Origin: an uncultured SAR86 cluster bacterium
Lineage (GTDB): Bacteria; Pseudomonadota; Gammaproteobacteria; Magnimaribacterales; AG-339-G14
Direction: 5' to 3'
DNA length: 64,000 bases
NCBI GenBank assembly: GCA_902514765.1
Contig: CABXSA010000001.1
Coordinates: 13,180 to 77,179 of the forward strand
Position 1 is the stretch's first letter, and each line of letters opens with the position of its first letter. Of the stretch, positions 7,316-22,587 are shown piece after piece. Under the pieces are notes generated by a model. The model ran no database searches, was not told the DNA's origin, and saw nothing but the letters and a program-made list of their open reading frames with translations. The position numbers were made by a program, and so were the translations under genes.

Positions 7316-8527
7316 ATGGATACTGGTAACACCGCCTGGATTTTAACGTCCACAGCTTTAGTTTTATTTATGACTTTACCTGGATTGGCACTTTTTTATG
7401 CCGGCCTTGTAAGAGCAAGTAACATTCTTTCTGTTTTAATGCACTGTTTTACCATTGCGTGCATTAGCTCAATTGCTTGGTTAGTAATTGCTTACAGTAT
7501 TGCTTTCAGTGGGAATGGTGCATATGTTGGAGATTTAGGTAATCTCTTTTTAGCCAATCTTTCAAGAGATAGCATGTCTGGTGATATTCCTGAAAGTGTA
7601 TTTTTTATGTTCCAGATGACGTTTGCAATCATCACTCCCGCCTTAATAGTTGGAGCGTATCCTGAAAGAATCAAATTTAGTTTTGTAGCTGTCTTTTCAT
7701 TATTGTGGGTAATTTTAATTTATGCGCCAGTCGTACATTGGATTTGGGCAGAAGGTGGCTGGCTTTACGAAATGGGAGTTAGAGATTTTGCCGGTGGATT
7801 GGTAGTGCATCTTACTGCTGGAATAACTGCCTTAGTGATAGCCTTCTTTTTAGGTCCCAGGGATGGCTTTCCAAACTCTGTACAGCCTCCTCATAATCCT
7901 GGGCTTACAATGATGGGTGCTTGTATGCTATGGGTAGGTTGGTTTGGCTTCAACGGCGGAAGCGCATTAGCTGCAAATAGTGATGCCGGTATGGCAATTC
8001 TTGTTACTCACATTTCTGCTGCTACAGCGACTATTGTCTGGATCATCATTGAAAAGGTTAAATTCGGTAAATCTTCTTTGGTTGGAGCAGTTACAGGTTG
8101 TATTGCTGGTTTAGCTTCCATTACTCCAGCCAGTGGTTCAGTAGGTCCAATGGGTGGGTTGATTATTGGTTTGATTTCCGGAGGAGTTTGTTACTACATG
8201 GTCAATATCGTTAAAGAAACCTTTAATATTGATGATTCTTTAGATGTATTCGCTGTTCATGGTATTGGCGGACTGTTAGGAATTTTACTAATTCCATTTT
8301 TGACAGCGGAGAGCTATGGTGGCATTGGATACGACGAAGGATCAAGTTTCAGTGATCTCATGACAACACAGGCAATTGGAGCAGTAAGCGTCGGTTTATT
8401 TACCTTGGTTGGTTCAGTAATTTTATTACTCATTACTAGATCTATATTTGGACTGAGAGTTTCTGATGATTCTCAAGAGGAAGGTTTGGATGTTGCTGAG
8501 CATGGTCAATCAGGATACAAACTATAG
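7316..8527 (+). CDS. amtB: ammonium transporter
   Basis: About 11 TM helices. Signatures: WFGFNGGS and DVFAVHGIGG. Confidence 0.9.
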   Translation: MDTGNTAWILTSTALVLFMTLPGLALFYAGLVRASNILSVLMHCFTIACISSIAWLVIAYSIAFSGNGAYVGDLGNLFLANLSRDSMSGDIPESVFFMFQMTFAIITPALIVGAYPERIKFSFVAVFSLLWVILIYAPVVHWIWAEGGWLYEMGVRDFAGGLVVHLTAGITALVIAFFLGPRDGFPNSVQPPHNPGLTMMGACMLWVGWFGFNGGSALAANSDAGMAILVTHISAATATIVWIIIEKVKFGKSSLVGAVTGCIAGLASITPASGSVGPMGGLIIGLISGGVCYYMVNIVKETFNIDDSLDVFAVHGIGGLLGILLIPFLTAESYGGIGYDEGSSFSDLMTTQAIGAVSVGLFTLVGSVILLLITRSIFGLRVSDDSQEEGLDVAEHGQSGYKL

Positions 8528-11003: not shown

Positions 11004-12176
11004 TCAAGGCTTCGAAAAGTTTTCTACTGCCCTCCAAACTCTCAATAAGTTTCCTCCAAAAATTTTTTTAATTTCTTCGTGGGTATAATTTCTCTTTAAT
11101 AATTCTTCAATTAAATTTGGATAAGTTGAAGTATCTTCCAAGCCAACAGGAAAATTCCGCCAGCCATCGTAATCGGAACCTATTCCAACGTGATCAATAC
11201 CAACTAAATTTTTTACTCTGTCTATATGATCAGCAACATCCTGAACGGTGACAACAAGTTTTGGATATTTTTTCTTTTCGGCAATAAATTCGGAGCCGAA
11301 ACAAATTTGAATAACGCCTTCATTTTTAGCTAATTCTCGTAACATGTCATCTGACACATTTCTCTCAAAGCCTGGCACAAAGTGTCTTAGTGAGCTATGA
11401 GAAGCTATAACTGGAGTTTTAGTTAAGCGTAAAACTTCATAAAAGGCAGCATCAGATACGTGACTTATATCTATCATTACTCCTTGGTTGTTCATTTCAG
11501 CAACTACCTCTCTTCCAAAAGGGCTTAAGCCACCCCAATTTTTATTCTCGTCATAAGAAGAGTCTGAAATATGATTGCTTTTCGAATGAGCTAAAGTAAT
11601 GTAATTGATACCCATGTCAGAAAATAATTTTATATTTGAAAGCTTGCTTTCGATTGGAGCGCCATTTTCCATACCATATACAACCTGCATAACCTCTTTA
11701 TCATTTGTAATTTCTTCAGGGGATTTTACTAATCTAAATTTATCGGGATTTTTATTCATGATGTCTTCAAGAATCTGAATAATTTCTTCAGCCATTTTAA
11801 AGGCTGTACCTTTTTCTTCTGCAGAAGGTGGGGTAAAGATAACAAAAAAAGGTACATTTAGCCCTCCACTTACTGCTCTATCGAAGTCAAAATGCAGGGA
11901 AGAAGCTTTTGTAATATCTTCATATGATCCATTTTTATCCTGCTGTATGTAAAGTTGAATAGGTGTATCCAGATGAGTATCAATAATTAAAATTTCTTGT
12001 GCTAATTCTTGTGCAAGGTCTTTAATTTCATCTCTTTCTCTTTTTCTGTCCATTAGCTTTCTTGCTTTCATGACATCTTGAAGACGTACTTGATAGTTTT
12101 TGTCCTGACTTTCAGAAAAAGCTAAAGGGGAAATAAATATAAAAGTGATTAGAGTTAAAAATGTTACGATTCTCAT
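11004..12176 (-). CDS. membrane/renal-type dipeptidase (peptidase M19) with signal peptide
   Basis: IDTHLDTP, GSDYDG and HSS..H motifs. N-terminal signal sequence. Confidence 0.85.
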   Translation of the reverse strand: MRIVTFLTLITFIFISPLAFSESQDKNYQVRLQDVMKARKLMDRKRERDEIKDLAQELAQEILIIDTHLDTPIQLYIQQDKNGSYEDITKASSLHFDFDRAVSGGLNVPFFVIFTPPSAEEKGTAFKMAEEIIQILEDIMNKNPDKFRLVKSPEEITNDKEVMQVVYGMENGAPIESKLSNIKLFSDMGINYITLAHSKSNHISDSSYDENKNWGGLSPFGREVVAEMNNQGVMIDISHVSDAAFYEVLRLTKTPVIASHSSLRHFVPGFERNVSDDMLRELAKNEGVIQICFGSEFIAEKKKYPKLVVTVQDVADHIDRVKNLVGIDHVGIGSDYDGWRNFPVGLEDTSTYPNLIEELLKRNYTHEEIKKIFGGNLLRVWRAVENFSKP

Positions 12177-13921
12177 GGCAGCCTTATTTTATCTACCATC
12201 TGCTCTACTTCAATTGGTGGTTTAGCAGTTAAAGCAGAAACGAAAACAGCAATTATAAAATTCACAAACATGCCTAGAAAACCAATTCCTTCAGGAGAGA
12301 TACCAAAAAGCCAATTTTCAGGATTATTCAATTCTGGAGATAAGAATTTGAAGAAGATGATATAACTAGAAGTAAATAACAAACCGCCTAACATGCCAAA
12401 AACAGCACCTTCTTTGTTTAATCTCTTAAAAAAGATACCTAAAAATATTGCAGGAAATATTGTGGAGGCTGCCAAGCCAAATGCGAAGGCGACAACTTGC
12501 GCTACAAAGCCTGGGGGATAGATTCCAAAAAGTCCCGCTATGAAAATTGCAATTGCTGCCGAACACCTTGCATAAAACAGCTCTTGTTTTTCATTGATTT
12601 TGGGCATGAAAGTTTTCTTTAATAAATCATGAGATATGGATGAAGATATTACTAAAAGCAAACCAGCTGCTGTAGATAAGGCAGCAGCTAACCCTCCAGC
12701 AGCTACTAACGCCATTACCCATGCAGGTAATTTTGCAATCTCAGGATTTGCTAACACCATGATGTCTTGATCGATGTAAACTTCATTATCATTATCTTTG
12801 GTACTAGGATTTTTTATTTCCCGCTCTCCTTGTGACCCTCTTGAGTCGAGAAAATCTGGACGGCCCTCTTCAAATGCTTTGCCCGCTGAATAATTTATTA
12901 ATCCGTCTTCATTTTTATCCTTCCAAGCAATTAGACCTATATTCTCCCAATTTTTAAACCAATCTGGTGAATCTAGGTAGTTTTTTTCTTGAATGGATTC
13001 AATAAAGTTTACCCTTGAGAAAGCAGCTACCGCAGGTGCAGTTGTATACAAGATAGCAATACATATCAAAGCATATCCGGCTGACTTCCTGGCATCACTG
13101 ACTTTTGGCACAGTGAAAAATCTAACAATTACATGAGGCAATCCAGCGGTACCGAACATCAAAGCAGCAGTGATACAGAAAATATCAATATTTGACTTGG
13201 TGCTTTGTGTATATGCATTGAAACCTAAATCTATAGAAAGTTGATCTAATTTATCTAATAGATAAGTGGAACTATTTACTAAAGTATCTCCAAAACCTAA
13301 CTGAGGTATGGGATTTCCGGTTATCAAAATTGAAATGAATATTGCGGGTACTAGGTAGGCAAAAATCATCACACAATATTGAGCAACTTGTGTATAGGTA
13401 ATCCCTTTCATTCCGCCAAGTACTGCGTAGAAAAAAACTACAATCATTCCGATGATAACTCCAATGTTTATTTCCACTTCCAAAAATCTTGAAAAGACTA
13501 TTCCAACCCCTCTCATTTGTCCTGCAACATACGTAAAAGAAATGAAAATTAAGCAAAGTACTGCGACAAGACGAGCTGTTTTTGAGTAGTAACGTGTGCC
13601 TATGAAATCTGGAACAGTATATTGGCCAAATTTTCTTAAGTAAGGCGCTAGCAATAAAGCCAATAAAACATATCCTCCAGTCCAGCCCATCAAATATACT
13701 GCTCCATCTTTCCCGAGAAAAGAAATCAGCCCTGCCATGGAAATAAAAGATGATGCTGACATCCAATCGGCTGCAGTCGCCATTCCATTTGCAACCGGGT
13801 TAACACCCTTCCCAGCAACATAAAAATCGTTAGTAGATTCTGCTCGCGACCAAATAGCAATGCCGATATAGAGCATAAAAGAAAGTCCTACAAAAAGATA
13901 AGTTAATGCTTGAGCGCTCAA
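12173..13921 (-). CDS. sodium:solute symporter family transporter (VC_2705 / ActP-like subgroup)
   Basis: About 13 TM helices with SSF-type sequence. Coupled to an upstream DUF4212 small subunit. 4-nt overlaps on both sides. Confidence 0.85.
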   Translation of the reverse strand: MSAQALTYLFVGLSFMLYIGIAIWSRAESTNDFYVAGKGVNPVANGMATAADWMSASSFISMAGLISFLGKDGAVYLMGWTGGYVLLALLLAPYLRKFGQYTVPDFIGTRYYSKTARLVAVLCLIFISFTYVAGQMRGVGIVFSRFLEVEINIGVIIGMIVVFFYAVLGGMKGITYTQVAQYCVMIFAYLVPAIFISILITGNPIPQLGFGDTLVNSSTYLLDKLDQLSIDLGFNAYTQSTKSNIDIFCITAALMFGTAGLPHVIVRFFTVPKVSDARKSAGYALICIAILYTTAPAVAAFSRVNFIESIQEKNYLDSPDWFKNWENIGLIAWKDKNEDGLINYSAGKAFEEGRPDFLDSRGSQGEREIKNPSTKDNDNEVYIDQDIMVLANPEIAKLPAWVMALVAAGGLAAALSTAAGLLLVISSSISHDLLKKTFMPKINEKQELFYARCSAAIAIFIAGLFGIYPPGFVAQVVAFAFGLAASTIFPAIFLGIFFKRLNKEGAVFGMLGGLLFTSSYIIFFKFLSPELNNPENWLFGISPEGIGFLGMFVNFIIAVFVSALTAKPPIEVEQMVDKIRLP

Positions 13922-14175
13922 CTTTTATCCTCTTTATTATCTTTCAATTTTTTTTCAATGCGATTCATGGCAAAAACATAAACAAAAATAAGAATCACAA
14001 AACCGTAAATACTCCCTTGCTGAGCGAACCAAAATCCTAATTTAAATCCACCTATTGAAAATTGATCTAAAAAATCTGAGAGAACTATTCCAAATCCAAA
14101 CCAAATCATAAGCCAGATGGATAAGAGAATAATTAACAGCCTTATATTTGCTTTCCAATACTCTTTGTCAGTCAT
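13918..14175 (-). CDS. DUF4212 putative solute:sodium symporter small subunit
   Basis: GGFKLGFWFAQQGSIYGFVILIFVY matches the DUF4212 signature as I recall it. Overlaps the symporter start. Confidence 0.7.
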   Translation of the reverse strand: MTDKEYWKANIRLLIILLSIWLMIWFGFGIVLSDFLDQFSIGGFKLGFWFAQQGSIYGFVILIFVYVFAMNRIEKKLKDNKEDKS

Positions 14176-14251
14176 ATATTTTTTAAAATTACTTTATGGG
14201 TTATTCTAGATTAAATAAAAAATTTTTTTTTAAACTTATTATTGATTAGAT

Positions 14252-15295
14252 ATGGAAAATAAAGAAACAGTATTAGTAACAGGTGGTTCAGGATTTATTG
14301 GCTCTCATTGCATTATTCAACTTGCAGCAGCAGGGTATAACGTGAAAGCGACAGTGAGAGATTTATCGAGAACCAATAAACTAAACCAAATACTATTAAC
14401 TGGTTTAGAAAAACATGAGGGAAAATCAGATCTTTTAGTTGATTGGCAAGTGGCGAATTTGTCATCTGACGAAGGCTGGGATGAAGCAGTCAAAGGATGT
14501 GATTATGTTTTGCATGTTGCATCTCCAATTGGTATGGAGTTACCTAAAAATGAAGATGAAATGGTGAAGCCTGCTGTTGAAGGAACACTTAGAGTTCTTA
14601 AAGCTGCTTCGAAAGCAGGGGTTAAAAGAGTAGTTATTACCTCTTCTGTTGCTGCAATTATGTATGGTACAGATAAACAAGGTGTATTTGATGAAGAGGA
14701 TTGGACTAATCCAGAAAGCAAAACAACAAATGTTTATGCCAAGTCAAAAACTTTAGCTGAACAGGCTGCTTGGGATTTTATGAAACAAGATACTTCTGGC
14801 ATGGAACTTTCTACAGTTTTGCCGGCAATGGTTTTCGGCCCAATTTTAGAGGAAGACTTTGGTGTTAGTGTGGGTGCAATTTTAGATATGATGAATGGTA
14901 AATATCCAATTGTTCCAAATTGGGACATGGGCGTTGTTGACGTAAGAGATGTGGCCGCACTTGAATTATTAGCGATGACTAAACCTGAGGCAGCGGGCAA
15001 AAGATTTGTTTGCTCATCAGAAAACATGTTCATGAAAGATCAAAATGAGTACCTCTCGGAACTCTTTCCAGAATCTGCTTCCAAAATTCCAAACAGAGTA
15101 GCGCCTAATTGGCTTATTAAGTTTCTAGCACTTTTCCTGCCCGCTTTGAAAATGATTGCTGAAGGCTTAGGCAAAGAAAGAAGCATGGATTCTTCACAAG
15201 CAAGAAATTTATTAGGCTGGAATCCAAGATCCGCTAAAGAGGCTGTAAAATCTGCCGCTGAAAGTGCCAAAGAATTTGGCTTAATAAAAGACTAA
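14252..15295 (+). CDS. NAD-dependent epimerase/dehydratase family, aldehyde (cinnamoyl-CoA/dihydroflavonol) reductase-like
   Basis: VLVTGGSGFIGSH Rossmann motif and YAKSK catalytic YxxxK. Confidence 0.75.
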   Translation: MENKETVLVTGGSGFIGSHCIIQLAAAGYNVKATVRDLSRTNKLNQILLTGLEKHEGKSDLLVDWQVANLSSDEGWDEAVKGCDYVLHVASPIGMELPKNEDEMVKPAVEGTLRVLKAASKAGVKRVVITSSVAAIMYGTDKQGVFDEEDWTNPESKTTNVYAKSKTLAEQAAWDFMKQDTSGMELSTVLPAMVFGPILEEDFGVSVGAILDMMNGKYPIVPNWDMGVVDVRDVAALELLAMTKPEAAGKRFVCSSENMFMKDQNEYLSELFPESASKIPNRVAPNWLIKFLALFLPALKMIAEGLGKERSMDSSQARNLLGWNPRSAKEAVKSAAESAKEFGLIKD

Positions 15296-16089
15296 GTTTT
15301 CTTATTTACAAAAAACTGTCTATCGGGATTATTGGCCTCTTCTTTATCAGAAAAAGGCGGATAACGAACTGCGCCATTAGGAGCATACTGCAAAATGTAA
15401 GATTTTCTGGTTAAGTCTGTTTTGTTTGGTCCTGTGCAATGCGGGGTCAAAGAAGAAAAGACTACAATATCTCCTGCTTTTGCTGGAACTGGTATAGCAT
15501 CAGAATCATCAAGTTTTATTCTGTAGCCTATTTCAGTGACATCATGCTTAAGCGTTCCCATTTTGTGTAATTTTGGAATAACCCATGGACAGCCATTGGT
15601 TTCATCGGTATCGGTTAAAGGTATCCAACAAGTTAAGTAAGCTTGAGGATAAACAAAAGTGTAACCATTGTCTTGATGCCAGGGAAAATCTTCTTGTGTA
15701 TCTGCTTTCTTATATACTGCTTGATCCCAATACAATCTTACGTCTCCACCGATTAAATCATGACACAAGCCTTTAAAAACTTGATGACTCGCAAAAGATT
15801 TTAAGAAGCTTGAATATAAGACTAAATGAGTGGTAAATGTAATATCGTCCGCTCTTGAAATTAAAAACTTCCCATCCTTATATTGGCGAAGATCTTCTGT
15901 CACTTTTTCTTCAAAAGGATCTATCTCATTTAATACTTGATCGATTTCTTCCTTTGAAAACACACCCTTTAGAAGAAAAAAGCCTTGTTCGTCATATTGC
16001 TTAACTTCTGCTTCAGAAAGATAGCTAAATGGAGGGGTTTTTTTCTTCCAAGAAAAAGATTTATTTCTTTCGTGTAGTTCCAGCTTCAT
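15292..16089 (-). CDS. phytanoyl-CoA dioxygenase (PhyH) family Fe(II)/2-oxoglutarate oxygenase
   Basis: HxD in WHQDNGY and distal His in TPHCTGPN. PhyH-like N-terminus (YDEQGFFLLKGVF). Confidence 0.7.
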   Translation of the reverse strand: MKLELHERNKSFSWKKKTPPFSYLSEAEVKQYDEQGFFLLKGVFSKEEIDQVLNEIDPFEEKVTEDLRQYKDGKFLISRADDITFTTHLVLYSSFLKSFASHQVFKGLCHDLIGGDVRLYWDQAVYKKADTQEDFPWHQDNGYTFVYPQAYLTCWIPLTDTDETNGCPWVIPKLHKMGTLKHDVTEIGYRIKLDDSDAIPVPAKAGDIVVFSSLTPHCTGPNKTDLTRKSYILQYAPNGAVRYPPFSDKEEANNPDRQFFVNKKT

Positions 16090-16093
16090 GTCA

Positions 16094-16270
16094 TTAATTA
16101 AAAGAATTTTCTAAGACCCAAAACTCCTCAAAATAATCTCCTGATTTTGGTCGCTCTTTATAAAGAGAGGTGTAATATCCGCCAAAAACTTTCCCATCTT
16201 GGATATCAGACTTAGGTCTTGGGTCCCCAATTTCAAAAGGCTTGCCTGTATCGGGATTTAATCTCTTCAC
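16094..16270 (-). CDS. candidate 58-aa protein (GTG start) filling the gap between the sulfatase-like gene and PhyH
   Basis: Open frame MKRLNPDTGKPFEIGDPRPKSDIQDGKVFGGYYTSLYKERPKSGDYFEEFWVLENSFN. Begins 10 nt after the upstream stop and ends 4 nt before the PhyH ATG. No ATG, no SD. Confidence 0.3.
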   Translation of the reverse strand: MKRLNPDTGKPFEIGDPRPKSDIQDGKVFGGYYTSLYKERPKSGDYFEEFWVLENSFN

Positions 16271-16280
16271 GAAAGTATTA

Positions 16281-17999
16281 TCAGCTATTCAAAGATTCAA
16301 GGTCAAAACAAGAAAAGAATTTTCTTACTTCATCTGAGTTATTCATTACAACCAAAGCTTCTTCTTCAACTTCAGATAAAGTTTTTTTCATGCTCAAAAG
16401 GTCATACCAAGTATCAGAAGATAAGCTTAAAGAAGGACTACCTTCAGATTCTTTATCAATTACTGCTATAGAGTTTCTAATTGAATAAAAAATGTTTTCA
16501 TCATCAGAAAAATTAAATTCTAAAGTTTGAGTGTAAGCATCTGCTTTTTCTGGAATCAACAGGACTCTCAATAACTTTAATGAGTCTATAGGAGAGCGTC
16601 TCGCTAATTCTCTTTTATTGAAACGATGCTTCCTGAAACGACTTAAATTTAAAGACTCATCCAGCTCTAGAGCTCTGGTTATGCACCAATTCCTTATATT
16701 TGCCGCTGAGGTAGAATAAGCCACCCCTCTAAGCGCAGTAGCTAAACGTTTACGATCTTCAGGCTCTCCAGCATCTGCAATACCTTGAGTATTATAATTT
16801 GAGCGAACCAGCCATGAAGAAAGCTCTATCGCCCAACGAAAATCCTCTGCTTCCAAAGAGGAATCAATAATTTCTCTTACTTTTTCAATTCCACCAAAGC
16901 CCTCTATTAGGCGTACAGACCTTTCAGGAGAAGGCACTGGGAAAAGATTTGCCTCATCCTCATCAAACCATCCAAAAAGACCAGAGTAGATTTGTCTAAC
17001 ATGGTGCTCTACGACACCATATAACTGTTGCGTAGTGTAATGCTCTTGAAAATGTCTTGGAAGTTTGATTGTACTAATAGCCTCATTTAGAGTAAGCCCC
17101 TTATTGGCGCATCTCACAGTTTGGTCCCACAAAAATTGCAAAGTATCTCGATAATTTATAATTATTTTTTTTATTTCTTCTTGTCCTGAAAATGGTGGGC
17201 CGTGAGCACTTATTAAATCTTCTGCTTCAAGTTCAGCTAGTTGATCCAAGCCTTTCATCATAATTCTAGGGTCTCGATATTCTTCTCCTCTAATAGCAAA
17301 AACATTGAATAAAACCGGCCACAGAAGATTGTTTATGGCTAGCTTCAAATCAGGGAACCAAATTGTAATGGAATCGGTCGCATCAGATGGGGCTGGAAAA
17401 AATTCTACTTTCAAACCAGCTATTTTTGCTTTTGTCGGCTCAATGAAAGTATGTTTTGGTGGAATATAGCCATTCGTGAAAGGAGCATGTTCAGGGTTTC
17501 GAAAAAAATTTCCGAGCCCCAAATTAACAATGCCGTCAGGTCCTTCTTGGGGCATGGAAGTCGCAAACTGGTGAGCCAACCCTCTCGTTACTCTAGGCGC
17601 AACCTCTCCACCAAATCTATCTAAGTTAGCTTGAATACCATCATGTCCCCAAATTGCTAAATTTTTATTTTCATCAACAAGTGTTTGGGTACCGCCTACA
17701 TAGTGAAAATGGGTATAAATGCATGCAACAACTGGAGCTTGAGTTTTTTTTCTTACCTCCTTTAAGGCTGCAGCCATCTCCTGATTACTTTCTCCGGTAT
17801 CTATGCAAATTAAACCTTCAGGTCCTTCTACGAAAGATTGGTTGGAAAGACCATTGCCAATTAAAGACCAGGCATTATTGCCTACTTTATAAAGCTTTTT
17901 TTCTAAACGTTTGCTATGTTCCAGGGTTGTCGGATGCGCCAATTGACCCTTTGGGCCTATTTGAGTAACTCCTGGCTTGAAAGAATCTTCTAAGTTCAT
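16281..17999 (-). CDS. metallo-beta-lactamase-fold alkyl/aryl-sulfatase-like protein with SCP2-like C-terminal domain and a degenerate metal motif
   Basis: Overall similarity to the SdsA1/Bds1 layout: MBL core, dimerisation region NYRDTLQFLWDQTVRCANKGLTLNEA, SCP2-like tail. The HxHxDH site reads THFHYVGG. Confidence 0.65.
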   Translation of the reverse strand: MNLEDSFKPGVTQIGPKGQLAHPTTLEHSKRLEKKLYKVGNNAWSLIGNGLSNQSFVEGPEGLICIDTGESNQEMAAALKEVRKKTQAPVVACIYTHFHYVGGTQTLVDENKNLAIWGHDGIQANLDRFGGEVAPRVTRGLAHQFATSMPQEGPDGIVNLGLGNFFRNPEHAPFTNGYIPPKHTFIEPTKAKIAGLKVEFFPAPSDATDSITIWFPDLKLAINNLLWPVLFNVFAIRGEEYRDPRIMMKGLDQLAELEAEDLISAHGPPFSGQEEIKKIIINYRDTLQFLWDQTVRCANKGLTLNEAISTIKLPRHFQEHYTTQQLYGVVEHHVRQIYSGLFGWFDEDEANLFPVPSPERSVRLIEGFGGIEKVREIIDSSLEAEDFRWAIELSSWLVRSNYNTQGIADAGEPEDRKRLATALRGVAYSTSAANIRNWCITRALELDESLNLSRFRKHRFNKRELARRSPIDSLKLLRVLLIPEKADAYTQTLEFNFSDDENIFYSIRNSIAVIDKESEGSPSLSLSSDTWYDLLSMKKTLSEVEEEALVVMNNSDEVRKFFSCFDLESLNS

Positions 18000-18008
18000 A
18001 AAAAATCC

Positions 18009-19910
18009 TTATTGTTTATTACTTTTTGACTTAGATGAGCAGCTTGGTGGAAGATTAATTGTTGGATTTTGATCAAAAAAACCAACTGGGATTAGATGAA
18101 ATCCGCAATACTCTACAGGCATTACAGGCCAGTCTTCTGGTCGGGGTAAATGGGTTACCCCAAAAGTAAGCCATGTCACCAAGTCGCATTCACTTATGTT
18201 TCTGTCTTGTGCCGTAATCTCTTCTAAGCCGCCCTCTCCAGAGTGCATCACCGTATGTCTGCCGCCTCCGCATCTCTCTTCGTTTTGAAACGGAGTTGCC
18301 CAAATATTATATTTCGCAAATGCAGCTCTTTTTCCTGGCGGAGAGTTAGGATTAGATAAAAGGGTTGGTGTATTACCATAAAGAATTTTATAGGCTGTTG
18401 GTAAACCAACTTTATTTAGCTTACTGGGATTCACAACTTTCCATGTGCGGCTTTTTTCTGGAGCAATATTCCTTTGAGCCTCACTCTCTTTTTTTAAATG
18501 CGATGAAACAGCTTGAAATTGGGTTCCTTCTGGATTCGTATTATTTATTGGTAAGGGCTCAACGTTTGTTTCGTATAACTGATTCTCACCATCATCCAGA
18601 TCCCAATCAATTCTTACATTGAATAGATGTTGGTGAATTGGTGACGCTAATTCTGGAGAGATTTTAAAATCTTGTCCTGATTTATGAATATCTGCATGAT
18701 ATGCGCTTATTCCAACTACACCTGTAAGTTTTATCTCTAATTGAATCGTGCCATCTAAATATAAATACCAAAATATGCCATAGTCATAGTTTCCTATAGT
18801 TGCAAAAGAACTAACTACAAGACGACGAGACCGCCTTACCTCGTTGTAACCCATTTGAGTAGCATCATTATGTTTCCATTGCACCCCAAAATCTTCTTCA
18901 TGAATACATATTGCATTTTCAATTGTTTCGACGGAACCATCAAAAGCTAGCTTGTGAGCGTCCAAATAATATATCTCACCTAGACAGTCGCAGCCCAAAG
19001 TTAAGGAATTTGTCATTGTCCCAAATCCATATTCGGTGCCATCATGAACTGCTTTCCACCAATGCATTGGATCAGATGAGCCATAAGGCACTACCATGTC
19101 TGACAAACCTGCGCGGTAAAAAATTGGTCTGTCATTTAAAGAAACTTGATGTAAGGCTAAACCTTCAATAGGATCAATGGAAGCTCTTAGCTGCCAGCCT
19201 TCCCAAGAAATTAAGTTATCTTTAACTGAAAATCCAACACCTTCGGGTTGAGTGATGGCGATTTCTTTTGGGCTTTCTCTTAATGTCTCTTGACCGTCTT
19301 TGTCATATCTAGCGGAAGCCTCGGGAACTTTCACTACCCCATGATCTTCAATTTCGACGACTTTTTTTTCTGTGAGGTCAACATGAGCAATCAAGCCTTG
19401 AATGGGTCTTGCATAAGCATTATCCTTTTCACTATCTTTTAGAAAAGAGATTGCTCTTAGAGCTCTATTGCCACTTTTTATATTCTTGTTTACGAAACCT
19501 CCACCTGGCCAGGGATCTATTTGTACAAGACTCAATTCTTTTATACCTCTTTTTTCTAAAGCCTTTTGATAATTTTCATCTCCCATAGTTAGCTCAATCG
19601 CCCCAAAAATTTCAGATAAAGTGTAAGTTGGTCCTGCTTTGTTAGAAATTTTTTTCTCAGTTAAAAGTTCTTTTTTTGAAATATTAATTTCTGCTTCAAA
19701 ACCATTGGATTTTTTATCTACCCCAACGATTTTTACAATCTTTTCTAGATTGCTATTCTCTTTGAGAGACTTTTTATCTGGCTCGTTTAAAGAAATATAA
19801 CTAAAAGAAGAGTGTTCATGCTCTTTATTACTTTTTTTGAGAATAGAAACTGCGTCACTTATTTCGGATGCGCTGAGGATACTTAAAGGATGATTACTAT
19901 TTTCAGTCAT
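18009..19910 (-). CDS. copper-containing primary amine oxidase (topaquinone enzyme)
   Basis: TPQ consensus NYDY (ATIGNYDYG) and Cu ligands HQH (SPIHQHLF). About 630 aa. No signal peptide. Confidence 0.9.
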   Translation of the reverse strand: MTENSNHPLSILSASEISDAVSILKKSNKEHEHSSFSYISLNEPDKKSLKENSNLEKIVKIVGVDKKSNGFEAEINISKKELLTEKKISNKAGPTYTLSEIFGAIELTMGDENYQKALEKRGIKELSLVQIDPWPGGGFVNKNIKSGNRALRAISFLKDSEKDNAYARPIQGLIAHVDLTEKKVVEIEDHGVVKVPEASARYDKDGQETLRESPKEIAITQPEGVGFSVKDNLISWEGWQLRASIDPIEGLALHQVSLNDRPIFYRAGLSDMVVPYGSSDPMHWWKAVHDGTEYGFGTMTNSLTLGCDCLGEIYYLDAHKLAFDGSVETIENAICIHEEDFGVQWKHNDATQMGYNEVRRSRRLVVSSFATIGNYDYGIFWYLYLDGTIQLEIKLTGVVGISAYHADIHKSGQDFKISPELASPIHQHLFNVRIDWDLDDGENQLYETNVEPLPINNTNPEGTQFQAVSSHLKKESEAQRNIAPEKSRTWKVVNPSKLNKVGLPTAYKILYGNTPTLLSNPNSPPGKRAAFAKYNIWATPFQNEERCGGGRHTVMHSGEGGLEEITAQDRNISECDLVTWLTFGVTHLPRPEDWPVMPVEYCGFHLIPVGFFDQNPTINLPPSCSSKSKSNKQ

Positions 19911-19944
19911 ACTTGAAGTATATAAGATTAAATATGCTCAAAAA

Positions 19945-20256
19945 TTATTTCTTCTTTTTATTTAATTCGTAAGCTTTAGATTTTTTAGGAAAAGAGCCTT
20001 TAACGATTGTGGCACGCTTTAAGATTTCATCATATTTTGTACAAGTGAATTCTCTAAACTTCATATAGTCTCTTAACATATCTTTCAAATTAAAACTGAT
20101 TGGAGACCTGTAGATAAGAAAACATGCATCAAACTCCGTTAAGTCTTTGAATTGTATAGTTTTAATTTCGGCTGGTTTGGAAGTTTTTTCTTGTGGAAAT
20201 ATCAAAAGAGAACTCAACAAAAGTACAGCTGGAAAAATTATTTTTTTAAGAAGCAT
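19945..20256 (-). CDS. small secreted protein, unknown function
   Basis: Signal peptide MLLKKIIFPAVLLLSSLLIF, two Cys, K-rich tail. Lies 34 nt upstream of the amine oxidase. Confidence 0.45.
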   Translation of the reverse strand: MLLKKIIFPAVLLLSSLLIFPQEKTSKPAEIKTIQFKDLTEFDACFLIYRSPISFNLKDMLRDYMKFREFTCTKYDEILKRATIVKGSFPKKSKAYELNKKKK

Positions 20257-20505
20257 TAATTATCACAAATCTTTTTTTAATAATTCTAAATTAGTAGCCA
20301 TATCAGTCAATAATAGCTAATCTTAATTATATGGATAGAAATGAACGGTTAGGCCGATCAATCCATGCAAGAAAAAGAAGGGCTCGTTTGAAGAAAACGC
20401 TCTCGCAAAGAAGCGACAATTTATATGCCCATCTTGATAGGTTGAGAGATAAAAAAAGAAAATTTCATATAAGACATCCTTTGGTCTATTAGAGAAGCTA
20501 ATGGC

Positions 20506-21363
20506 TTAAGTTTTATATTTTTTGATCGCACTCTTAAGAGGCTCTAGGTGCATGGAAAGATTTGGTCCGAATACCTCTTCAATGTCTCCGTTTTCCCTTT
20601 CTCCATAAAAGTCTAAGATGCATTTTTGGTAACTTTTTCTACTTTTTAATAATTCCCAATAAATTTTTACATTTGGCAGTTCTTCTATCTCTAGAATCTT
20701 TTCAAGTCTTACGTCTGTGAGCCTGTGAAAGCAGCACATTAAATTTATATCTATGTGTGAAAATTTTCCTAAAAAGTAAGGACTAGAGTTTTCTAATTGT
20801 TTTTCAATATCTAGTAGGCTTTTGGCCAGCACTTTGTAGCATCTGACTGCAACTGGCTTTTGAATATTGAAAAATTTCATGACTAAAAAAAAGCGCCCTC
20901 TTTCTCTCAAGGGGTGTTTCCAAAAGACTTTAATGGCTTGAAAAATAGATAAGTATTTTTTTACCATGAAATTTATAAGAATTAACGAGAAAGGTGGTAT
21001 TGCAGTGCCTAAAGTTTTCCCTAAAGGAACGCCATCAGTTAGAGTAGTATCGTCTACCCAAGTATTAAGCTTTTCTTGGTCTACATCTGCTGGCCATAAA
21101 TCCATATCGTTTTCACCAGAAATAGAATTTAGTTTTTTAATAATGTTTGTACTTTCCGTGACTATTTCTCCATCCAAGTCTAATGAAGGCACAACACCTT
21201 TTGGATTTATTGCGAGATATTCTGGGGAAAGATTCTCGGCCTCAGGATATTGATCACAAAGTTTTATAAGGTTGCTTTCATAGGAAAGGCCTTTTTCTTC
21301 CATGGCAACACGAGCCATTTGGCTACACAAAGACCATTTAGCGTGATACAGCTTTAATTTCAT
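20506..21363 (-). CDS. glutathione S-transferase family protein (PcpC / GDAP1-like subgroup)
   Basis: Thioredoxin-fold N-terminus LYHAKWSLCSQMARVAMEEKG resembles the S-x-C-S active-site region of tetrachlorohydroquinone dehalogenase-type GSTs (from memory). VVPSL cis-Pro loop. Confidence 0.6.
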   Translation of the reverse strand: MKLKLYHAKWSLCSQMARVAMEEKGLSYESNLIKLCDQYPEAENLSPEYLAINPKGVVPSLDLDGEIVTESTNIIKKLNSISGENDMDLWPADVDQEKLNTWVDDTTLTDGVPLGKTLGTAIPPFSLILINFMVKKYLSIFQAIKVFWKHPLRERGRFFLVMKFFNIQKPVAVRCYKVLAKSLLDIEKQLENSSPYFLGKFSHIDINLMCCFHRLTDVRLEKILEIEELPNVKIYWELLKSRKSYQKCILDFYGERENGDIEEVFGPNLSMHLEPLKSAIKKYKT

Positions 21364-22151
21364 TGGAAATCATCTGGGAAATATTCCTTTAGGTTTTCCC
21401 TTACTAGTTTGGTCCAAATTTTATAGCCCTTTTGATTCATATGAAGCAAGTCTTCTGTATAAAGTTCGGGTCTAGGTTTTTCGTCAGCAGATAACATTGG
21501 TGGAGAAACATCAACGAAAACCAATTTGGTTTCTTTATTAGCTAAATTTCTGACCGATTCGTTCCATTTTTGCTGTCTGGGTCTTTGATCAAATCTGCTT
21601 GGAGAAGGTTGAATGCTTATGGCAAAAACCATGGTTTTTGGAAGTCTTTCTTTCACAGAATTGAAGAAGATTTCAAATTCAGCAAAAACATCTTCAGGCG
21701 CATTCCAACCATTAATGTCATTGGAGCCGCAAAAAAACACAATTGCTTTTGGTTTATAAGGAAAAACTATCTTATCTTTGTGGCGATTTATATGTTTAGT
21801 ATGAGCGCCGCCAAAACCTCGATTAATAATATTTAGCGGGCTCATGTCTTCTTCCAAAGATTGCCAAAGTCTAATCGAAGAGCTTCCTATAAATAAAAAT
21901 CCATTAGTTGGGGGGAATGCGATCTTATCTTGCTTAACAAATTCTTCAATATCTTCATCGAAACCATCTAGCTTGTTGTAACTTCGAATTCTCTTAACCC
22001 AGTATTTAATTTCTTCGTCATTAAGTTCATACCCAAGAGCTTTGGCTCCCTCTTTTACTCGGTATTCCCAATATTTTTCATATGCAAACCAGCCTCCCAG
22101 AATGAGAATGAATAAAAAACCAATTATGTAAAACGAGGCTCTTTTAGTCAT
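21360..22151 (-). CDS. membrane-anchored SGNH/GDSL-family hydrolase
   Basis: N-terminal TM helix. Blocks I (FIGSSS), II (GFGG), III (GSND) and V (DLLHMN). ATGA overlap with the GST-like gene. Confidence 0.65.
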   Translation of the reverse strand: MTKRASFYIIGFLFILILGGWFAYEKYWEYRVKEGAKALGYELNDEEIKYWVKRIRSYNKLDGFDEDIEEFVKQDKIAFPPTNGFLFIGSSSIRLWQSLEEDMSPLNIINRGFGGAHTKHINRHKDKIVFPYKPKAIVFFCGSNDINGWNAPEDVFAEFEIFFNSVKERLPKTMVFAISIQPSPSRFDQRPRQQKWNESVRNLANKETKLVFVDVSPPMLSADEKPRPELYTEDLLHMNQKGYKIWTKLVRENLKEYFPDDFQ

Positions 22152-22206
22152 GCTGCTATTTATATGCTTAAATAATTACAAATGCTATCAAAAAAATTAA
22201 AAATCG

Positions 22207-22587
22207 ATGTTAGATAAAGTTTTTCTTTTTATATTCGGTATCGAATGGTTAGGTTTTGGGGTTATAGGACTTTTCTTTCCAGAGATTATTTCAAATTGGA
22301 TTGGCATCAATCAAACTTCAGACTTTTATTTAAGCGAAACACGCGCCTGGTATTCTTTTTTTACTATCCTAGGCATGATGTCTCTGATAAGTATTTATCG
22401 CATAAGGCTAAGGAAAAAAGTCTATCTAACTTTCTGCATTCTTATGGGGAGTTTTTTGATAGGAAGAACCATAAGTTTTTTACTTGATAGTAGTTTAGGA
22501 ACCGGAACGGCTATAACGTTTGTTAATGAATTTGTGGTATTCGTAATTTCTTACTGGCGTTATACCAAAAGAGACTTTATTTTCTGA
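22207..22587 (+). CDS. 4-TM membrane protein, unknown function
   Basis: Hydrophobic ORF. Its stop overlaps the start of the next gene. Confidence 0.4.
   Translation: MLDKVFLFIFGIEWLGFGVIGLFFPEIISNWIGINQTSDFYLSETRAWYSFFTILGMMSLISIYRIRLRKKVYLTFCILMGSFLIGRTISFLLDSSLGTGTAITFVNEFVVFVISYWRYTKRDFIF

Follow-up and report, generated by a model that had tools for sequence, protein, structure and literature searches.

The described systems closest to the genes considered in this study are the copper amine oxidases represented by AGAO of Arthrobacter globiformis, the type III (S3) alkylsulfatases SdsA1, SdsAP, Pisa1 and YjcS, the PhyH-family Fe(II)/2-oxoglutarate (2OG) oxygenases, such as PhnY*-type phosphonate hydroxylases, EctD and PHYHD1, and the phage-type homing endonucleases of the HNH/endonuclease VII (EndoVII) kind. 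The genes form a block in a 64,000-nucleotide (nt) stretch of DNA (contig CABXSA010000001.1; hereafter the window), which is assigned to the SAR86 cluster because its sulfatase-like protein is 90–94% identical to those of SAR86 single-cell genomes. Five open reading frames (ORFs) follow one another on the minus strand: orf103 (19945–20256; 103 amino acids, aa), encoding a small, putatively exported protein; the copper amine oxidase (CuAO) gene (18009–19910; 633 aa), encoding an AGAO-type copper/topaquinone (TPQ) primary-amine oxidase; the sulfatase-like gene (16281–17999; 572 aa), whose product has the three-domain alkylsulfatase fold that includes a metallo-beta-lactamase (MBL) domain; orf58 (16094–16270; 58 aa, GTG start), encoding a single endonuclease-type repeat; and the PhyH gene (15292–16089; 265 aa), encoding an Fe(II)/2OG oxygenase. 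These ORFs and the gaps of 34, 9, 10 and 4 nt between them, as reported in a preliminary description of the window, were reproduced exactly by a six-frame ORF list. The preliminary description had proposed that the five genes, together with an abutting short-chain dehydrogenase/reductase (SDR) gene, constitute a dedicated pathway in which nitrogen is obtained by breaking down either a hydrophobic primary amine or the head group of an amino- or sulfo-lipid. Our results show that the block is a new arrangement of known gene kinds and that good evidence for a new amine-lipid pathway is lacking in the window. We lean, with restrained confidence, towards the reading that the block is a probably co-transcribed, lineage-specific mosaic of scavenging enzymes in an ordinary stretch of SAR86 chromosome and not an inherited pathway. 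Literature searches on SAR86 amine oxidase, on alkyl sulfatase with MBL and amine oxidase, and on bacterioplankton copper amine oxidase found no relevant description, in agreement with the earlier statement that no described pathway has this gene set.

The sulfatase-like family yielded 1712 database matches. Scanning GTDB with a single genome for each species identified 489 relatives, the best 80 of which were inspected with 10-kb flanks, and all proteins of the window were compared by tblastn with 89 loci, which consisted of the best 80 and the loci collected earlier. CuAO, orf103 and orf58 as well as the flanking genes for glutathione S-transferase (GST), GDSL, SDR, DUF4212, SSF and M19 proteins were found only in 14 SAR86 loci, in which the sulfatase-like proteins were at least 79% identical to that of the window. 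Two further SAR86 loci with the block were reached from the oxidase side. None of approximately 66 non-SAR86 loci, which came from the K189A clade, Pseudomonadales, Azotimanducaceae, Acidimicrobiales and Dehalococcoidia, had an oxidase gene at a distance of 10 kb or less from the sulfatase-like gene. In a neighbor-joining tree, the oxidase-linked sulfatase-like genes grouped into a single terminal clade surrounded by sulfatase-linked lineages, and the oxidase adjacency is thus one derived event. Given that the flanking GDSL, GST, SDR, DUF4212, SSF and M19 genes are also kept, plain synteny explains the adjacency of the CuAO and sulfatase-like genes. Co-occurrence in independent lineages, by which a conserved multi-gene pathway would be recognized, was not found. 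According to the preliminary description, the pathway would have to be given up if its genes were not co-conserved in relatives, and this was largely the case, as the CuAO and sulfatase-like genes are neighbors in one SAR86 clade only and PhyH is missing from 7 of the 15 related loci.

Within the SAR86 subclade, only the order 53-aa ORF–orf103–CuAO–sulfatase-like gene–orf58 was constant. PhyH was present in 8 of the 15 related SAR86 loci, its absences being scattered over the subtree with clean junctions, and the SDR gene in 14 of the 15 loci that reached its position (it is absent from L016). Moreover, in seven SAR86 loci either a PF10634 P19-like protein or a 71-aa membrane ORF was encoded between the sulfatase-like gene and orf58, which itself sits at the junction where cassettes come and go. 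At this junction, the P19-like copper/iron protein, the 71-aa membrane ORF and PhyH would have been gained and lost. The PF10634 insert, found in four SAR86 loci (2085–2618 of L009; about 11722–12256 of L013, L015 and L019), encodes 177 aa with a signal peptide and belongs to the P19/"Fe2+ transport" copper-/iron-binding family; the presence of such a protein beside a copper enzyme is suggestive. A second indel hot spot flanks the block on its other side, where a gene of 430–457 aa with weak BSP/metallopeptidase-like similarity lies between the GST gene and the 53-aa ORF in three loci (6202–7494 of L010, 6210–7499 of L017 and 6030–7403 of L093).

Relatives of CuAO, the sulfatase-like gene and PhyH are found in unrelated operons, which indicates three separate "home" contexts. 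For the sulfatase-like gene, clustering of its neighbors revealed a partner gene whose product is a PF00884 sulfatase of 774 aa; it contains the formylglycine motif CSPTR (Cys-type) and has no signal peptide. This sulfatase gene occurred in approximately 50 of the 75 non-SAR86 loci and, in almost all of them, was 10–110 nt downstream of the sulfatase-like gene. The pair spans Gammaproteobacteria, Acidimicrobiales and Dehalococcoidia (L002, L006 and L021–L087). In one clade (K189A-type), genes for nitrile hydratase beta and alpha were found upstream of the sulfatase-like gene. PhyH was also considered as an ancient partner and was rejected: the PhyH-family genes that adjoin the sulfatase-like gene in the non-SAR86 loci L001, L056, L058 and L069 are only ~25% identical to that of the window and are not orthologs. 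A cluster of neighbors that was first suspected to be PhyH was identified as a classical SDR. The 774-aa sulfatase was not found in the window or in any SAR86 locus examined. The ancestral operon partner of the sulfatase-like gene would have been the cytoplasmic 774-aa formylglycine sulfatase, and in a SAR86 ancestor the sulfatase-like gene may have come to adjoin the amine oxidase gene without it. The "sulfo" part of the earlier proposal receives indirect support from the conserved formylglycine sulfatase that partners the gene outside SAR86, and none within SAR86.

The sulfatase-like protein matched PF14863 (Alkyl_sulf_dimr; 2e-26) and, weakly, PF00753 (Lactamase_B; 2.9e-5), whereas its match to PF14864 (Alkyl_sulf_C; 1e-4) was under the gathering score. 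Its HMMER alignment to Escherichia coli YjcS (7.5e-42) reached residue 566. The only full-length Foldseek matches of its AlphaFold model (predicted local distance difference test score, pLDDT, of 78.6) were YjcS, SdsA1, Pisa1 and SdsAP (E values of 1e-31 to 1e-27). In this model, the three-domain fold, in which MBL and dimerization domains are followed by an SCP2-like C-terminal tail, is confirmed. The protein thus has the architecture of the S3 family and of the four type III alkylsulfatases, and its earlier designation as an alkylsulfatase-fold protein with an SCP2-like tail holds.

Its metal site is different. The metal ligands of SdsAP/SdsA1 are His192, His194 and Glu303 at one site and Asp196, His197 and His367 at the other, with Glu322 as the bridging residue (PMC5426288). 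When these positions were mapped onto the sulfatase-like protein with fixed spacings of +19 and +45, H97, H99 and H266 were found to be kept and D206 to stand at the position of Glu303, so that the first site of the type III alkylsulfatases, i.e., His-x-His, a carboxylate (Asp, as in Pisa1) and a distal His, is common to both. The residues of the sulfate-binding loop, Asn/Arg/Gly/Arg, are also shared (N232, R237, G238 and R242). However, where alkylsulfatases read THSHxDHxGG, the window protein reads THFH--YVGG, and this 2-residue deletion removes the Asp and the His of the HxHxDH motif. In addition, Asn224 stands at the position of the bridging Glu, and the binuclear Zn site is thereby lost. 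These truncated states were invariant in an alignment of 20 family members (mean column identity of 72%), and the HxH-only motif was found in all 85 family sequences examined. Membership of the S3 family requires, in SulfAtlas, an identity to SdsA1 of 30% or more (~600 residues) and the HxHxDH motif (PMC5066984). With 20–24% identity to SdsA1/YjcS in the Foldseek matches and without HxHxDH, the window protein falls outside on both counts. SdsAP bears a 41-aa signal peptide (PMC5426288), whereas the window protein has none. Also different from the type III alkylsulfatases, the family of the window protein is usually partnered with the cytoplasmic 774-aa formylglycine sulfatase.

These residues show that the subfamily is not a canonical alkylsulfatase with two zinc ions, and this counts against the proposed pathway, as the "alkylsulfatase" is without half of its catalytic metal site. 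We infer a mononuclear hydrolase, or a binding partner, for the anionic ester of a hydrophobic alcohol, as the retained residues of the sulfate loop leave binding of an anionic ester possible. The sulfatase-fold protein would carry out an ester chemistry of its own. Residues 132–171 were near-invariant across the family (P135, R136, R139, G140, Q144, F145, G153, D155, G156, N159, G161–G163, R167, N168 and H171), despite an AlphaFold pLDDT below 50, and may form a lid that covers the active site and is specific to this family.

Several points weigh against the mosaic reading. The inspection covered the best 80 of 489 sulfatase-like relatives, and linkage to an oxidase is possible in the more distant ones. 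Similarly, the negative result for the 774-aa sulfatase covers the SAR86 loci, and a copy elsewhere in SAR86 genomes is possible. The promoter placed upstream of orf103 (see below) is a bare consensus match. Moreover, the orf103–CuAO–sulfatase-like gene–orf58 core was unbroken in all 16 SAR86 loci, although synonymous divergence (dS of 1–2) is saturated and indels occur on both sides, and an unbroken core would also be expected of a functional unit.

The last point favors an unlikely alternative, in which the unit is narrower: orf103, CuAO and the sulfatase-like gene, with or without orf58, would be a SAR86 innovation by which one class of compounds, such as O-sulfated amines, is desulfated and the amine is then oxidized. 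This would accord with the variation of the flanks around the intact core, with the finding of orf103 only with this block, with the retained Asn/Arg/Gly/Arg of the sulfate loop and with the true sulfatase that partners the family elsewhere. In Klebsiella and other enterics, tyramine oxidase and arylsulfatase are reportedly linked (Murooka et al. 1978, cited in PMC4640556). Amine oxidation and an enzyme of sulfate esters are said to be associated there genetically or regulatorily. The enteric system, however, reportedly consists of a periplasmic oxidase, a formylglycine arylsulfatase and an AraC-type regulator, whereas the window encodes an MBL-fold protein with a truncated site. By this analogy, our best guess at a substrate shared by CuAO and the sulfatase-like protein, if there is any, would be an O-sulfated primary amine. 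Against the narrower unit, the adjacency of the two genes counts as one event because it has a single evolutionary origin within a syntenic region, no other lineage examined pairs both families, no block-specific candidate transporter or regulator was found, and the metal site is unlike that of every characterized alkylsulfatase.

The HxH-only proteins bear on two further alternatives. Their relatives number at least 489 at the species level and occur in marine Gammaproteobacteria, Acidimicrobiia and Dehalococcoidia. It is conceivable, though rather improbable, that they are a new class of mononuclear enzymes whose chemistry differs from the sulfate-ester hydrolysis of SdsA1. The class would normally act with the cytoplasmic 774-aa sulfatase, and in one SAR86 lineage its gene would have been recruited with orf103 into a new operon with CuAO, from which an undescribed route for aminated sulfate esters or related dissolved organic matter would have arisen. 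A non-catalytic role has been given still less weight. The sulfatase-fold protein would in that case be a pseudoenzyme that carries a hydrophobic ligand via its SCP2-like tail and serves the formylglycine sulfatase in other lineages and another enzyme in SAR86. The loss of the Asp-His pair and of the bridging Glu, the failure to qualify for S3 by either identity or motif and the genuine sulfatase with which the family is constantly paired in lineages other than SAR86 are all in line with a pseudoenzyme. However, the very strong conservation of the family, including the invariant H97, H99, D206 and H266 and the family-specific loop of residues 132–171 around the former active site, is what a functional catalytic site more typically shows, and the ratio of nonsynonymous to synonymous substitutions (dN/dS) of the sulfatase-like gene was 0.055. 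Mono-metal enzymes with the MBL fold, such as B2 lactamases and ETHE1, are also well known. Because of the extreme conservation around the site, a non-catalytic carrier is less likely than a mononuclear enzyme.

CuAO matched PF01179 (Cu_amine_oxid; 5e-140) together with the N2 and N3 domains PF02728 and PF02727, scored 722 bits against the cutoff of 651 for the NCBIfam primary-amine oxidase NF008559 and was collinear with the Arthrobacter phenylethylamine oxidase (3.4e-134). Similar to AGAO, it possesses the TPQ motif NYDY (374–377), the catalytic base Asp308 in GCDCLG and three His copper ligands (H426-x-H428 and H587), and its identification as a TPQ copper amine oxidase is thereby upheld. 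It differs from AGAO and other NF008559 proteins in its partners, as no feaB/FeaR-type aldehyde dehydrogenase or regulator accompanies it, and in belonging to a streamlined marine oligotroph. It has no signal peptide and is predicted to be cytoplasmic. CuAO would convert R-CH2-NH2 and O2 to an aldehyde, NH4+ and H2O2, by which nitrogen would be released. Copper amine oxidases require an amine on an alpha-CH2 group. Sphingoid and capnine-type sulfonolipid bases were accordingly rejected as CuAO substrates, because their amine sits on a secondary carbon.

In a SAR86 metagenome-assembled genome (L093/L094) whose CuAO was 77% identical to that of the window, the block was kept as orf95–CuAO–sulfatase-like gene, with the 71-aa membrane ORF and an orf59 where the window has PhyH. 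For two more distant proteins that were looked up (64–66% identity), the CuAO gene was found either in the order alkaline phosphatase–class III aminotransferase–APH/choline-kinase-like–CuAO or in the order amidase–CuAO–esterase, and the sulfatase-like gene was not seen in these settings. In L090–L092 and L095, where CuAO lies behind the phosphatase, aminotransferase and kinase-like genes, the setting resembles amino-alcohol kinase/phospho-lyase pairs. A pair of PhyH and HD-domain genes, which is PhnY*/PhnZ-like, is found 7 kb upstream, and these surroundings look like a nutrient-scavenging region.

PhyH matched PF05721 (6e-33; 115 bits against a cutoff of 22) and contained an intact Fe(II)/2OG triad and Arg (H138-x-D140, H217 and R228), as expected from its earlier assignment to the PhyH-type Fe(II)/2OG oxygenases. 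It has both the domain and the HxD...H...R motif in common with PhnY*-type phosphonate hydroxylases, EctD and PHYHD1. However, it reached no NCBIfam equivalog: the best, methylphosphonate hydroxylase, gave 67 bits against 500, and in the comparison with PhnY*/ectoine hydroxylases the other specific equivalog gave 35 bits against a cutoff of 336. Different from these enzymes, it also has no PhnZ-type HD partner and is optional in its locus. PhyH was rejected as a PhnY* given that its score was far below the cutoff and that the block contains no gene for PhnZ or another HD-domain protein. Its matches to solved structures were at most 44 bits. PhyH is an intact but dispensable oxygenase, which may have an accessory role. 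Two relatives that were looked up (~57% identity) end TauD–amidohydrolase–(amidase)–PhyH operons. In L096–L101, which are from other marine Gammaproteobacteria, such operons begin with an ORF of 72–74 aa and combine two oxygenases with amidohydrolases.

The SDR gene (14252–15295) is on the plus strand and convergent with PhyH; the 4-nt overlap of the two genes (15292–15295) holds both stop codons. The SDR product, an extended-SDR protein that resembles carbonyl (aldehyde/ketone) reductases, matched the Epimerase and 3Beta_HSD families of Pfam and contained GGSGFIG (11–17) and YAKSK (162–166). Its nearest solved relatives were dihydroflavonol (DFR) and cinnamoyl-CoA (CCR) reductases, the methylglyoxal reductase Gre2 and aldehyde reductase II, which fits the aldehyde-reductase-like enzyme with overlapping stop codons that had been noted at this end of the block. 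The aldehyde that CuAO would produce could plausibly be consumed by the convergent SDR. Beyond the SDR gene, a minus-strand run (11004–14175) encodes a DUF4212 small subunit, a Na+/solute symporter of the VC_2705 family and an M19 dipeptidase. The genes of this run overlap by 4 nt (spacing of −4 nt) and are fully syntenic in the SAR86 relatives. A gene for an Amt ammonium transporter is located at 7316–8527.

A phmmer search against 1.84 billion representatives showed that orf58 is one unit of a ~50-aa repeat (KRxNPxTGKxF..GD.R....DG..F..Y....GYF.E.W), which forms 2–5 N-terminal stretches in proteins of 166–402 aa. The identities between orf58 and the units of these proteins were 45–60%. The C-termini of the long repeat proteins matched, in PHROG, the endonuclease phrog_3322, endonuclease VII and HNH. 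An alignment-based scan found relatives of the orf58 family on 23 IMG/VR viral contigs, whereas a viral scan with a single repeat-endonuclease protein as query gave zero matches. Thus, orf58 has its repeat unit in common with phage-type HNH/EndoVII homing endonucleases and belongs to a family found on viral contigs. Different from those endonucleases, which combine arrays of repeats with a nuclease, orf58 has one repeat, is conserved as a 58-aa protein and contains no nuclease domain, and no nuclease-like sequence was found downstream of it within the window. It may be a DNA-binding repeat that derives from a phage-type homing endonuclease, either domesticated or as a relic, and that marks a junction prone to recombination. 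The previously unannotated 58-codon ORF is a genuine gene, with a dN/dS of 0.084, but from what it encodes it is not a pathway component. In the same comparison of 15 orthologous loci, dN/dS was 0.098 for orf103 and 0.046–0.09 for the enzymes, and purifying selection acts on all members of the block. The possibility that orf58 and orf103 are spurious ORFs was ruled out by these values.

In orf103, the hydrophobic N-terminus varied, whereas the mature part was conserved and contained two invariant Cys residues. Four relatives had a lipobox-like LVSC. These features fit an exported protein, which would have a signal peptide or, in some relatives, be a lipoprotein, and are consistent with the secreted small protein proposed earlier. 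No Pfam or PHROG match was found for orf103, and it was not found in any non-SAR86 locus or in the oxidase loci L090–L095; it occurs only with the CuAO–sulfatase-like block. The preliminary description had overlooked a conserved ORF of 53 aa on the plus strand (20331–20492), which is divergent with respect to orf103 and convergent with the GST gene. Its product begins MDRNERLGRSIHARKRRARLKK, is extremely basic and unannotated, and had no Pfam match. In 14 SAR86 loci, it was found by tblastn with 73–94% aa identity over its full or nearly full length, and in a 15th, at the end of the locus, with its first 24 residues only. It keeps adjoining orf103 where the 430–457-aa gene is inserted near the GST gene. 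The 53-aa product is possibly a small nucleic-acid-binding protein or regulator.

Upstream of orf103, the 249-nt "gap" holds this 53-aa ORF, and a divergent region of 74 nt remains. In it, a consensus scan found a promoter-like TTGACT-16 nt-TAGAAT (20283–20310, minus strand), which matched the consensus at 10 of 12 positions, ~27 nt upstream of the start of orf103. The only "terminator" of the upstream gap was discounted because it is located inside the 53-aa ORF. A scan of 13800–22400 for promoters and terminators revealed no enrichment over shuffles (25 promoters found and 26 expected). The promoter-like site is weak evidence, but a reasonable start for a transcript from orf103 to PhyH. Tight spacing is ordinary in this genome: in a greedy gene call of the whole window, the coding fraction was ~96%, the median same-strand gap was 4 nt, 41 of 50 same-strand gaps were 34 nt or shorter, and opposite-strand neighbors often overlapped too. 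Because tight packing is the background state of this genome, the spacing of the block is uninformative on shared function; it is no tighter than chance gives here, and it allows co-transcription. The five genes had been taken for a single transcription unit on account of their spacing. The spacing does not carry this claim, whereas the promoter-like site and the lack of room for signals between the genes keep it plausible, and orf103, CuAO, the sulfatase-like gene, orf58 and, where present, PhyH are probably co-transcribed from one promoter. No tRNA was found in the window, which therefore has no tRNA-linked island signature, and at E ≤ 1 no credible Rfam match was obtained in the region. The GC content was flat along the block.

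The least supported version is the amine-lipid pathway of all five genes and the SDR as set out at the beginning, for which there is only a slim chance: co-directional and tightly packed genes, the SCP2-like tail, the intact CuAO and PhyH, the aldehyde-reductase-like neighbor and the similar metagenomic abundance of the 90% clusters of the three enzymes (993, 867 and 749 member sequences) can be cited for it, but the spacing carries no information, PhyH and, in one locus, the SDR are dispensed with, orf58 is an endonuclease repeat and no enzyme, co-occurrence is confined to one SAR86 subclade, the metal site is truncated, and a CuAO that needs an alpha-CH2 amine excludes sphingoid and capnine-type bases.

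In the surface ocean, SAR86 bacteria belong to the uncultured heterotrophs of highest abundance, and their use of dissolved organic matter as a source of nitrogen and carbon is little understood. As a caution, tight same-strand packing in streamlined genomes is no sign of a pathway. The cytoplasmic CuAO makes primary amines a likely nitrogen source for this SAR86 subclade. The lead most worth following is the HxH-only subfamily of the alkylsulfatase fold with its formylglycine sulfatase partner, which is a target for sulfatase enzymology and for the correction of annotations.

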